Shown here piece by piece: positions 44,900-46,502 of a stretch of DNA of 63,635 bases. The first letter of the stretch is position 1; every line of letters begins with the position of its first letter. The translations under genes were made by a program, and so were the position numbers. The notes below the pieces were generated by a model. The model was given only the letters and a program-made list of their open reading frames with translations, was not told where the DNA came from and did no database searches. The DNA lies in the NCBI GenBank assembly GCA_964548815.1, contig CAZJSD010000001.1, positions 1 through 63,635 of the forward strand, given 5' to 3'. Source of the DNA: an uncultured Muribaculaceae bacterium (GTDB taxonomy: Bacteria; Bacillota_I; Bacilli_A; RF39; UBA660).

Positions 44900-44919
44900 T
44901 AATTGTTAATGTGTCTTAC
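44900..44919. repeat. 20-bp perfect inverted-repeat partner of 9901-9920
   Basis: TAATTGTTAATGTGTCTTAC, ending 3 nt before the recombinase RBS. Confidence 0.95.
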
Positions 44920-44936
44920 AAGAAAGGAGAATTAAG

Positions 44937-46502
44937 GTGAAAAAGAGTAAGACATTTAATGTTGGTCTTTATATAAGATTATCTCGAGAAGATGGAGATA
45001 ATTTAGAGAGTGAAAGTATTTCAAATCAAAGAGATTTTCTTAACTTGCATTTGCAAAGATCAACTGAAAATCTATTTTATATAGATGAGTATATAGATGA
45101 TGGATTTACTGGTTCGAATTTTGATAGACCTTCTTGGAAAAGACTAATTAATGATATTGAGAATGGAAGAATAAATACAATAATTACAAAAGATTTATCT
45201 CGTATGGGAAGAGATTATATTTCAATGGGCGAATATATTGAAAGAATTTTTCCGGAAAAGGGAATAAGATATATTGCTGTAACTGATGATATTGATACTC
45301 TATATGAAACTCCAGGCTTAGAGTTTTTACAATTTAAACTAATGTTTAATGATTATTATTTAAAAGATACATCAAAAAAAATAAGAAGAATTGTAAAATC
45401 AAAAAAAGAACAAGGACAATTTTTGGGTTGGAAAGCAGTTTATGGTTATAAAAAAGATCCTAGTGATAAACATAAATTAATAGTAGATGAAGAAATAAGA
45501 CCTATTATAGAAAGAATGTTTAATATGGTTGTAGAAGGTAAAACTCCCAAGCAAATTGCTTATGTTTTCTCAAAAGAAAGAATACCAACACCAAGTATGT
45601 ATGCAAATTTAAATAGAGGTTTAAAATCTACAGCATATGAATTATGGTGTCCTAGAACAATTGAAGAAATGTTAAATAATGAGACTTATATTGGAAATCT
45701 AACTCAAGGAAGAAGAAAAAAAATTAATTATAAATCAAAAAAGGAAGTAAGAACTCCAAAAGAAGATTGGATTATAGTGAAAAATACCCATGAAGCAATA
45801 ATAGATGAAAACACATTTAATACAGTGCAGAGTTTACTAAGAAAAAATAGAAATAAGGTTAACAAGAGTAATATGAAATTATTAAGTGGTTTTATGAAGT
45901 GTAAAGAGTGTGGTCATGCAATAGGTTTAAATAGAAGTTTAGATGGTAAAAGGTATTATTGTCATTGTACTTACTACACTTCACATTCTAAATATGGATT
46001 ATGCACTCCACATTCTTGTAATTATGATAAATTAGAAACTGCTGTTTTAAATTCCATAAGAACTATTTGTAATCAATATGTTGATAGTACAACGTTTAAA
46101 GATAAAGTAGATGAAGCACGAAAGAAAAATGATTATAAAAATAAAATAAAAAAAGAATTATCAATTTTAGATAGTAAAATAGCAAATAATTATTCATATA
46201 TAGATAAGATTTATGAAGATAGATTAAAAGGTGAAATAAATATAGAAATGTTTAATAGATTTTCAAATAAATATAGGAATGAAATAGATGATTTTAATAA
46301 CAAAAAAATAGAATTAGAAAAAGAACTAAATAAAAGTGATAGTAAAGATTTATTAAAAGAAAAAGAATCTGTTATTGAAAAAATAAATGAGTATCTATCA
46401 TTTAAAAAACCAGATAGAACATTATTAGCTAATTTGATTGATGAAATACTTATAAGTGAAGATAAAACTATAGAAATTCATTATAAATTTAAATTAGAAT
46501 AA
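44937..46502 (+). CDS. large serine recombinase (resolvase domain, recombinase domain, zinc ribbon, coiled coil)
   Basis: GTG start with AAAGGAGA RBS. GLYIRLSREDGD...SISNQR catalytic Ser region. CKECGH...YYCHC zinc ribbon. Last gene before the right junction. Confidence 0.95.
   Translation: MKKSKTFNVGLYIRLSREDGDNLESESISNQRDFLNLHLQRSTENLFYIDEYIDDGFTGSNFDRPSWKRLINDIENGRINTIITKDLSRMGRDYISMGEYIERIFPEKGIRYIAVTDDIDTLYETPGLEFLQFKLMFNDYYLKDTSKKIRRIVKSKKEQGQFLGWKAVYGYKKDPSDKHKLIVDEEIRPIIERMFNMVVEGKTPKQIAYVFSKERIPTPSMYANLNRGLKSTAYELWCPRTIEEMLNNETYIGNLTQGRRKKINYKSKKEVRTPKEDWIIVKNTHEAIIDENTFNTVQSLLRKNRNKVNKSNMKLLSGFMKCKECGHAIGLNRSLDGKRYYCHCTYYTSHSKYGLCTPHSCNYDKLETAVLNSIRTICNQYVDSTTFKDKVDEARKKNDYKNKIKKELSILDSKIANNYSYIDKIYEDRLKGEINIEMFNRFSNKYRNEIDDFNNKKIELEKELNKSDSKDLLKEKESVIEKINEYLSFKKPDRTLLANLIDEILISEDKTIEIHYKFKLE

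Follow-up and report, generated by a model that had tools for sequence, protein, structure and literature searches.

Large serine recombinases (LSRs) move many integrative and conjugative elements (ICEs), mobilizable islands, and prophages in Firmicutes, including carriers of resistance such as Tn5397, and they are in development as genome-integration tools. To our knowledge, it is largely unexplained outside Tn4451 how such a recombinase is kept quiet in the integrated element and yet is made quickly once the element is a circle or has reached a new host. Here, we describe a set of complementary repeats around the LSR gene of a predicted 36.7-kb ICE. The ICE lies in a 63,635-nucleotide stretch of DNA (the window), which is contig CAZJSD010000001.1 of assembly GCA_964548815.1 read on the forward strand, from a 1.19-Mb, 76% complete genome that GTDB places in RF39/UBA660.

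In phage lambda, Guarneros, Echols, and co-workers reportedly described retroregulation of int by sib in the early 1980s; sib is a local 3′ hairpin that is cut by RNase III, with a negative effect. As in lambda, the window has a cis site that lies across attP from the recombinase gene, that can be in the mRNA only with attP intact, and through which recombinase output would report the integration state, and the coordinates place a site in this sib-like layout, separated from the recombinase gene by attP, in five lineages. In contrast to sib, the window site has no RNase III hairpin of its own and is predicted to pair over ~1.7 kb with the 5′ leader, where it would compete with a hairpin enclosing the ribosome-binding site (RBS); in addition, the enzyme is a serine and not a tyrosine recombinase. 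Circle-specific promoters are known for tnpX of Tn4451/Tn4453 and as junction promoters of the insertion sequences IS911, IS30, and IS2. We propose for the window, as in those systems, that the enzyme is strongly expressed only from the circle and that the joined ends make the signal. However, those signals are DNA promoters at the joint, while no −35/−10 pair spans the window joint and the proposed signal is an RNA pairing. Fold-back inhibition of IS10 and IS50 transposase translation was reportedly described by Davis, Simons, and Kleckner in 1985 and by Krebs and Reznikoff in 1986. The proposed likeness to the window is that a leader pairs with the initiation region of the mobility enzyme and that output is set by which arms the transcript holds. 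In IS10, an extra arm just 5′ of the native start blocks the RBS, whereas the native transcript of the window would already have the closing hairpin and the extra arm is at the other end of the element.

Tn916, an ICE of the same wider family, has a left-end terminator, T1, and a cis-acting RNA antiterminator, canT (Wirachman and Grossman 2024, PMC11658703). In Tn916, transcription that begins near the recombination genes runs across the circle joint as far as the left-end terminator (PMC11658703). The points in common with our proposal for the window are a transcript that crosses the joint to a left-end cis element and an upstream RNA element that acts in cis. A strong terminator (14-bp stem, z −5.1) comes right after the distal arm in a Tn5397-like left end, which resembles T1, and a hairpin is found at this place in a clade of elements that target a cotD-like gene; unlike T1, the window left end has no local terminator hairpin, only the arm and U5. 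The window also differs from canT, which modifies polymerase processively and for which base pairing with the left end has not been described. The window ICE shares with Tn5397 a homologous recombinase, the upstream module of sigma-like gene, small open reading frame (ORF), and recombinase gene, and the same arm set; the arm sequences, the target site, and the conjugation module differ. Relative to all of these systems, what we propose as new is a long-range 5′-3′ pairing across a whole ORF in competition with an RBS-enclosing hairpin. We found no Rfam family match for the arms and, in full-text literature searches, no earlier description of them, Tn5397 included.

The ICE interrupts an NMT1/THI5-like binding-protein gene, whose C-terminal part is at 9297-9845 and N-terminal part at 46522-46983, both on the minus strand. 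Both junctions have the same CCACC core, with mirrored, imperfectly symmetric att (attachment) arms (Table 1), and the homologous att arms of relatives read ATAAGTTT...CCGATGA and TCATCGG...AAACTTAT. The LSR is 34.4% identical over 98% of its length (residues 9-518, tblastn) to the annotated tndX product of Tn5397. With its recombinase domains and split target gene, the window ICE has the sequence features of a TndX/Tn5397-type LSR integrative element.

Close to the two ends of the ICE lie two 20-mers, the leader arm in the 5′ untranslated region (UTR) of the recombinase gene and the distal, or left-end, arm. The original prediction held that this exact 20-bp inverted repeat was not due to chance. 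We found that the two arms are the only copies in the window at ≤3 mismatches, where shuffled sequences give an expectation of 0.04, and that the whole 1.19-Mb genome has no copies beyond them. An exact scan of 596 Gb of genomes gave three matches elsewhere, in other phyla and in unrelated contexts, which are chance matches. The distances that had been reported for the arms were right: the leader arm ends 3 nt before the Shine-Dalgarno (SD) sequence, and the distal arm is 49 nt inside the left junction and 63 nt 5′ of the parA ATG (9984). It had also been noted that, in the circle, the recombinase gene and attP lie between the arms. This follows from the coordinates, by which the two arms of the predicted circle bracket ~1.69 kb containing both, and it became the key point of our analysis. 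We also found that the distal arm is the top duplex partner of the leader on either strand of the whole 63.6-kb window (−26.6 kcal/mol versus −18.2 kcal/mol for the next best). The left-end arm region itself is locally unpaired (minimum free energy, −3.1 kcal/mol; z +0.6) and has U5 but no local hairpin. We rejected a reading of the arms as transposon terminal inverted repeats with a 6-bp duplication (AAGAAA beside both arms in the window), as the junctions lie 49 bp and 1.6 kb outside the arms and the AAGAAA duplication has no counterpart in relatives (GGAAAG versus CAAGAA).

Table 1. Features of the ICE ends and of the recombinase leader in the window, and leader and ORF arms at distant loci
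Feature	Coordinates	Strand	Sequence	Remark
Left junction core (attL crossover region)	9847..9851	.	CCACC	Repeated at 46553-57; gene pieces on both sides; same junction in 11 relatives
P′ arm of attP	9852..9876	+	TCAGCGATGTAAAAAGTTATAATAT	Mirror of right-end arm (TTATAAC...CGATG)
Distal (left-end) arm	9901..9920	+	GTAAGACACATTAACAATTA	Exact reverse complement of leader arm
T-run	9922..9926	+	TTTTT	Adjoins distal arm on its 3′ side; AGTTTTT in relatives; hairpin terminator at this place in other lineages
Small ORF, 34 amino acids (aa)	44785..44888	+	MKIITVFDNNGKTLQQIMEQFLIDYC...	Conserved 5′ of recombinase gene
Fourth, partial arm, in small ORF	44815..44831	+	GAAAGACACTACAACAA	13/17 paired with leader arm, −12.9 kcal/mol
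Candidate −10 box	44892..44897	+	TATAAT	Predicted transcript start at about the first bases of leader arm
Leader (5′-UTR) arm	44900..44919	+	TAATTGTTAATGTGTCTTAC	Kept as TTGTTAATGTGT[CT][CT]TAC in relatives
Shine-Dalgarno sequence	44923..44929	+	AAAGGAG	In 27-nt loop of local hairpin
LSR gene, 521 aa, TndX homologue	44937..46502	+	GTG start	Pfam Resolvase, Recombinase, and Zn_ribbon_recom
ORF arm, codons 4-8	44947..44960	+	GTAAGACATTTAAT	Pairs with leader arm
P arm of attP	46521..46552	+		Directly 3′ of recombinase stop codon
Right junction core (attR)	46553..46557	.	CCACC	Match to left core
L104 leader arm / ORF arm			GUGUGCGGUU / AACCGCAUAU	
L105 leader arm / ORF arm			GUUGUUUCU / AGAAACAAC	
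L116 leader arm / ORF arm			AUUAUUCCC / GGGAAUAAU	
L117 leader arm / ORF arm			AUGUGUUUCAUUAG / CUGAUGAAACAUAU	
L122 leader arm / ORF arm			UUUUCCCG / CGGGAAAA	
L137 leader arm / ORF arm			GUUAUACAC / GUGUAUAAC	
L158 leader arm / ORF arm			CCUAUUGUUAU / AUGAUAACAAUAG	
L172 leader arm / ORF arm			GCUGUUUC / GAAACAGC	
L190 leader arm / ORF arm			AUCAAGUAAUUA / UAAUUACUUGA	

The reading that we favor, at roughly an even chance, is that the two 20-mers are arms of a multi-arm RNA switch on the recombinase gene, in which the far arm would pair with the leader only when attP is intact. The left-end arm lies across attP from the recombinase gene and could therefore be in the recombinase transcript only in the circle; from its own mRNA, the element probably reads whether it is integrated or a free circle. 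The arms with their geometry, conservation, and covariation and the energetic ranking of their pairing partners are observations; the transcript ends, co-transcription across attP, and the direction of the effect are our inference. In the proposed mechanism, the recombinase mRNA would start at or just before the leader arm, and by default the leader arm would fold onto codons 4 to 8, placing the RBS and the start codon in a 27-nt loop and keeping initiation low. The left-end arm would be a longer and perfect competitor for the leader that also pairs with the 5′-most bases of the leader arm, a possible toehold. In the circle, this arm would be met ~100 nt past the recombinase stop codon, followed by a U-run, and a 20-bp 5′-3′ duplex would displace the local hairpin and free the initiation region, so that recombinase could be made for re-integration. 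Upon integration, attP would be split, the far arm would be gone from the mRNA, and the hairpin would close. Alternatively, pairing of the leader with the far arm could lead to RNase III cleavage and have a negative effect, as in lambda sib. In an equilibrium fold of the whole mRNA, leader/distal-arm pairing in the circle has a probability of ~0.97 per nucleotide and the SD is unpaired with a probability of 0.82 in the circle versus 0.51 in the integrated form, values that are illustrative only, since folds of 1.7-kb AU-rich RNAs are weak evidence.

The leader arm can also pair with the ORF arm, which the original prediction had listed as a third copy of the repeat and which we now see as one arm of a genuine leader structure. 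In the window, this stem has 14 bp and one bulge (−10.2 kcal/mol), with the SD and the GTG start in the 27-nt loop, as had been described; the start codon is within the stem in some relatives (L137, L158, and L164). In the close clade, 88.9% of cells pair, versus 31-48% when the 3′ partner is slid, and one stem pair is compensatory by way of a synonymous Lys codon (U-A in 7, C-G in 6, and U·G in 2). We found the same geometry in a distant set of 80 further loci with LSRs of 32-48% identity, with the end of the leader arm 3 to 6 nt 5′ of the SD and the ORF arm beginning near codons 2 to 5. More than 15 unrelated stem sequences form this hairpin among LSRs of 32-77% identity (examples in Table 1), and in tndX of Tn5397 it is a 16-bp stem (−23.7 kcal/mol) that encloses GGAAAGGAG and a TTG start. 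The mean duplex energy of leader and ORF arms is −15.65 kcal/mol for cognate pairs versus −11.75 kcal/mol for non-cognate pairs, with 38% of 77 loci in the best decile, in a test that related loci make conservative in one respect and non-independent in another. These data support the leader/ORF-arm hairpin as a conserved RNA structure that appears to be kept by covariation. Thus, of the proposal that the hairpin is a translational off-switch, the structure stood, through the unrelated sequences and compensatory changes seen in the pairing of the leader with codons ~3 to 8, while repression of translation is a step that we infer. Most of the recombinase genes have a weak start codon, which is GTG in the window and TTG in many relatives; in L104 (158-160) and L105 (~9992), ATA is apparently used, at the proper distance from GGAGG.

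When we compared the possible partners of the leader, their ranking was the same in the window and in the Tn5397-like element. In the window, the duplex energies are −28.3 kcal/mol for the distal arm, −13.6 kcal/mol for the ORF arm, and −12.9 kcal/mol for the partial arm in the small ORF; in the Tn5397-like element they are −31.1, −22.2, and −19.1 kcal/mol, respectively. In each lineage, the distal arm also reaches 2 to 15 nt further 5′ on the leader than the ORF arm does. A distal arm that is both 5′ extended and the strongest partner is the layout that would be expected for strand displacement.

The arms of the window clade change in concert at positions 4 and 5, with AA, AG, and GG states. 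The states are paired between the arms (GTAAAAC/GTAAAAC, GTAAGAC/GTAAGAC in the window, and GTAGGA./GTAGGA.), with occasional single differences. Over all lineages, the mismatches between the leader and far arms are G·U compatible on the recombinase-sense strand in seven cases, A·C in one, and U·U in one; this tally is small (one-sided p ~0.035, transitions), and one of the G·U pairs is terminal and another comes from a hybrid element. The arms of the Tn5397-like element differ by two transitions and one indel, by which RNA pairing is kept and DNA identity is broken. We also found that the leader base and the third bases of a Lys codon in the small ORF and of one in the recombinase gene co-vary (A/U/A in 6, G/C/G in 4, G/U/A in 2, and A/U/G in 2), and A·C was never seen among these 14 distinct haplotypes. 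These patterns are signs that the leader/far-arm pairing is selected, and at the RNA level.

To place the repeat in its genetic context, we compared 49 recombinases of 57-77% identity from gut "Bacilli/Tenericutes/CAG" metagenome-assembled genomes, with further ones in metagenomes. About half of these loci have, before the start codon, TATAAT, 4 or 5 variable nucleotides, the leader-arm motif (Table 1), ~3 nt, and AAAGGAG, and the relatives with a leader arm have an inverted partner on the same contig, 7 to 11 kb away. In the window clade, the distal arm is 17 to 20 nt long in more than 15 elements, and 11 left ends can be aligned well over a stretch that begins with the core, includes the arm, and ends with AGTTTTT. 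One relative, L070 (12.5 kb), also occupies this NMT1 site; its left arm is ~50 bp inside the junction, and it has neither parA nor the sigma-like gene. A minimal element of 2.1 kb, also in the NMT1 site (L080, ~700-2610, minus strand; G009:C4), consists in order of attL, an arm, ~215 nt with the small ORF only, the other arm, the recombinase gene, and attR; with a left end of the L017-clade type and a recombinase of the L016 type, it appears to be a hybrid that arose when two elements recombined. L070 and the minimal element both keep the repeat pair and encode no ParA, ParB, or sigma-like protein; the sole proteins that occur together with the repeat sites are the recombinase and the 34-aa peptide. 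The repeat therefore belongs to the recombinase/att backbone, and the conserved set, judged by sequence comparison, is the recombinase gene, the upstream ORF of 34 to 38 aa, the att arms, and the repeats. This speaks against an earlier suggestion that the repeat is an operator coupling partition to recombinase expression, as the repeat is kept in 12-kb islands and in a 2.1-kb element that lack parA, parB, and the sigma-like gene. A check for conservation in relatives, which had been called for, found the arms kept, at like positions and with concerted change. We found no relatives in a search of viral contigs, and an order-wide pattern scan gave mostly noise, with three further pairs and no new variants.

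The same comparisons bear on a reading of the arms as DNA sites bound by a single protein of the element, which could be the recombinase, the 34-aa peptide, or a directionality factor and would repress the recombinase promoter at +1 and act beside attL, possibly with DNA looping. Both arms co-occur with the recombinase backbone, and the right arm overlaps the predicted transcription start after the conserved TATAAT. The left arm overlaps a weak TTAACA-17-AATGAT before parA, a 9/12 match that is no better than in shuffles, and in a clade that targets a LysM-protein gene the distal arm starts ~10 nt from the crossover, overlapping the expected P′ half-site. However, the 20-mer has no internal dyad and no likeness to the att arms of its own element, and the sigma-like protein, ParA, and ParB are missing in relatives that keep the repeat. 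Protein binding would also leave unexplained the position of the ORF arm within coding sequence, its covariation, and the G·U pattern, and the changes in the Tn5397-like arms preserve RNA pairing only. We consider DNA sites of this kind quite unlikely, and the lack of a dyad and of att-arm likeness, together with the Tn5397 arm changes, likewise makes the suggestion in the original prediction of binding sites for a directionality or architectural factor a less likely one. As recombinase half-sites, the arms were rejected as well: they have no similarity to the P and P′ arms in the window clade, and the overlap with P′ is found in the LysM clade only.

At least five lineages, Tn5397 among them, have a far arm, each with a sequence of its own, and the recurrence extends down to a protein identity of 34%. 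Its place is just inside the end opposite the recombinase gene, so that with attP intact it is ~100 nt past the stop codon in the window and 50 to 160 nt past it in relatives. In the LysM-gene clade, GGGAATAATGAGTAT lies ~10 nt inside the left junction and 1.5 to 3.5 kb upstream of its leader complement and is followed by a T-run, and in the cotD-like-gene clade, GAGATAAATAAGTACA lies ~30 nt inside the left junction, followed by a small hairpin and T5. In L104 and L105, which are metagenome contigs with LSRs of 44-45% identity, the partner is 90 to 125 nt 3′ of the recombinase stop codon, after an att-like palindrome and directly 5′ of a hairpin terminator; this is either an attP configuration or a permanent arrangement. 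A Tn5397-like element deposited as a 23.9-kb circle (L200) has a leader, GAUAUGAGUUGUUUGUUUGCUGU, that pairs with ACAGCAGGCAAACAACUUCAUAUC, ~45 to 70 nt past the tndX stop codon across the joint. This duplex has 23 bp with two G·U pairs and one bulge (−33.4 kcal/mol) and is the best on either strand of the 23.9 kb, and U5 follows the hairpin after the far arm. The first 165 bp of this left end have matches in two plasmid records only and, by this measure, are specific to Tn5397-type elements; for comparison, no complete Tn916-type left end was found in the plasmid searches. Overall, a hairpin terminator follows the far arm in L104, L105, L140, and L200, and a T-run follows it in the window clade and the LysM clade. 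Together with the joint-crossing transcripts of Tn916, these signals are indirect evidence that the recombinase transcript may run through attP into the far arm. We think it possible, though with somewhat less confidence than an even chance, that TndX-family elements from the window ICE to Tn5397 carry a junction-sensing, riboswitch-like device. In such a device, a circle-only 3′ segment would pair with the 5′ end of the mRNA and bracket the whole ORF in the manner of an rRNA processing stalk. The 5′-3′ pairing would flip translation or stability, and integration state would be read from RNA topology with no protein sensor.

Recurrence also bears on whether the left arm has any present function, as it could be a relic, copied from the 5′ end of the recombinase gene (for example, by tandem accretion and deletion between elements), that is kept only by recency. 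The left arm and its flank (GAAAGGTAAAACA) resemble the recombinase start region, and the hybrid and minimal elements show recombination between elements. A relic of the ORF arm would be expected to be a direct coding copy, but the left arm matches the leader complement better than it matches the ORF arm. With the arrangement recurring in at least five lineages with unrelated sequences, to 34% protein identity, and with arms that change in concert, we regard a functionless relic as highly improbable.

The position of the far arm just inside the left end, followed by an inward-facing terminator or T-run, would also suit insulation against read-in transcription, in the way of IS10/IS50 fold-back. 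In the integrated state, transcripts that come in from beyond the left end would contain the distal arm; on those that get past termination as far as the recombinase leader, a long duplex would form and lead to cleavage or blocked initiation, and host promoters would be unable to switch on excision. Tn916 has a proven left-end insulator in T1 (PMC11658703), and the interrupted host genes of the LysM and cotD-like clades are oriented so as to read into the element on its own strand. In the window clade, however, the split host gene is on the opposite strand, and there is therefore no obvious read-in. The arms would be 35 kb apart on such a transcript of the 36.7-kb ICE. In addition, the duplex covers neither the SD nor the start codon and it releases the ORF arm, so that activation, and not silencing, is predicted. 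We judge insulation to be an unlikely explanation of the arms. In sister LSR clades, L119, L120, and L126 target the LysM-protein gene and L129, L140, and L142 target the cotD-like gene; the target gene is split in frame, with the element giving a stop codon within a few codons, and in the LysM clade the host gene resumes ~5 nt or less from the recombinase stop codon.

For the RNA switch that we favor, the start of the transcript matters, and the sequence before the leader arm suggests a promoter from which the mRNA would begin close to the first nucleotide of the arm. TATAAT is invariant, and the next 4 or 5 nt are variable, in ~20 distinct relatives with a full leader arm; the promoter match is CTAACA-17-TATAAT in the window, and distant loci often have TGnTATAAT. 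In Clostridioides difficile 630, however, the sole tndX start that has been mapped is weak and lies 134 nt upstream, not at the proximal TATAAT (PMC7438776, supplementary file 5), and the assignment of the proximal promoter is therefore unconfirmed. The leader arm is transcribed from either candidate start. A promoter rebuilt across the joint was rejected, as the left-end TATAAT, itself within the P′ arm, has no usable −35 at the right spacing.

Besides the mapped tndX start, several observations weigh against the switch. In the window, the SD and the start codon are unpaired, in the loop, and the hairpin energy is unremarkable (z −0.86). Independent compensatory events in the close clade are few (2 or 3), and an A·C mismatch occurs in the local stem of the L017/L021 clade. 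Both arms are present in the relative L012 even though its recombinase gene is followed by cargo. Relatives with other genes after the recombinase gene are mostly without both the leader arm and the far arm, and in these the small ORF overlaps the recombinase gene; this loss of the arms fits the model but is confounded by phylogeny. Many window-clade relatives have, between the recombinase stop codon and the P arm, a palindrome or hairpin with T8 that could end transcripts before attP, a structure that the window lacks. Finally, no distal arm was found in three distant lineages with long-pattern scans that are too insensitive to show absence; these scans gave the leader's own site only, plus one match with three mismatches on another G021 contig.

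If the RNA switch is real, an RNA architecture that is independent of sequence would tie recombinase output to the intactness of attP, which would be a concrete mechanism. It would also explain why short perfect repeats are found at fixed places in these elements, and it could help to annotate element ends. This reading is testable in C. difficile or Bacillus subtilis with Tn5397.

Other features of these elements were seen along the way. The palindrome of most relatives is att-like (ATAAGTTT-N27-AACTTAT) and lies with T8 right after the recombinase stop codon (L070 16454-16510, with equivalents in L006, L010, L017, L018, L021, and L044 and arrays in L047). Its spacer of 27 nt, versus 38 nt in the reconstructed attP, gives it an attB-like geometry, and possible roles for it are those of a terminator, a decoy, or a docking site for tandem insertion. 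A small ORF of 34 to 43 aa is conserved 5′ of these recombinase genes, including an unannotated homologous ORF of 43 aa before tndX (L200 22062-22193). Its product has no Pfam or NCBIfam match and may act as a leader peptide or a directionality factor. The small ORF overlaps the recombinase start in those relatives that have no leader arm, which implies translational coupling. In the window, a strong terminator-like hairpin (44247-44284; 17-bp stem, T-rich tail) is directly 3′ of the gene for a sigma-70 region-4 protein (43752-44219) and divides it from the small-ORF/recombinase unit.

The gene content of the window ICE includes parA, parB, a thioester adhesin, a MobA/VirD2-type relaxase, a VirD4-type coupling protein, a VirB4-like ATPase, a CHAP hydrolase, an RHS protein, a holin, a GH25-LysM lysin, and the sigma-70 region-4 protein, with the recombinase gene last. 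The cargo of L070 (4139-14018) encodes a Ser/Thr kinase, a macro domain, PHP and an AAA ATPase, an SMC/AAA_21 ATPase, DUF4268, and a small resolvase, and such cargo in the 12.5-kb relatives resembles an anti-phage defense island. At 35185-43282 of the window, a gene for an RHS-repeat protein of 2,060 aa is followed by a small ORF, the holin gene (PF05105), and the GH25-LysM lysin gene, a layout that is suggestive of holin/lysin-assisted toxin export.

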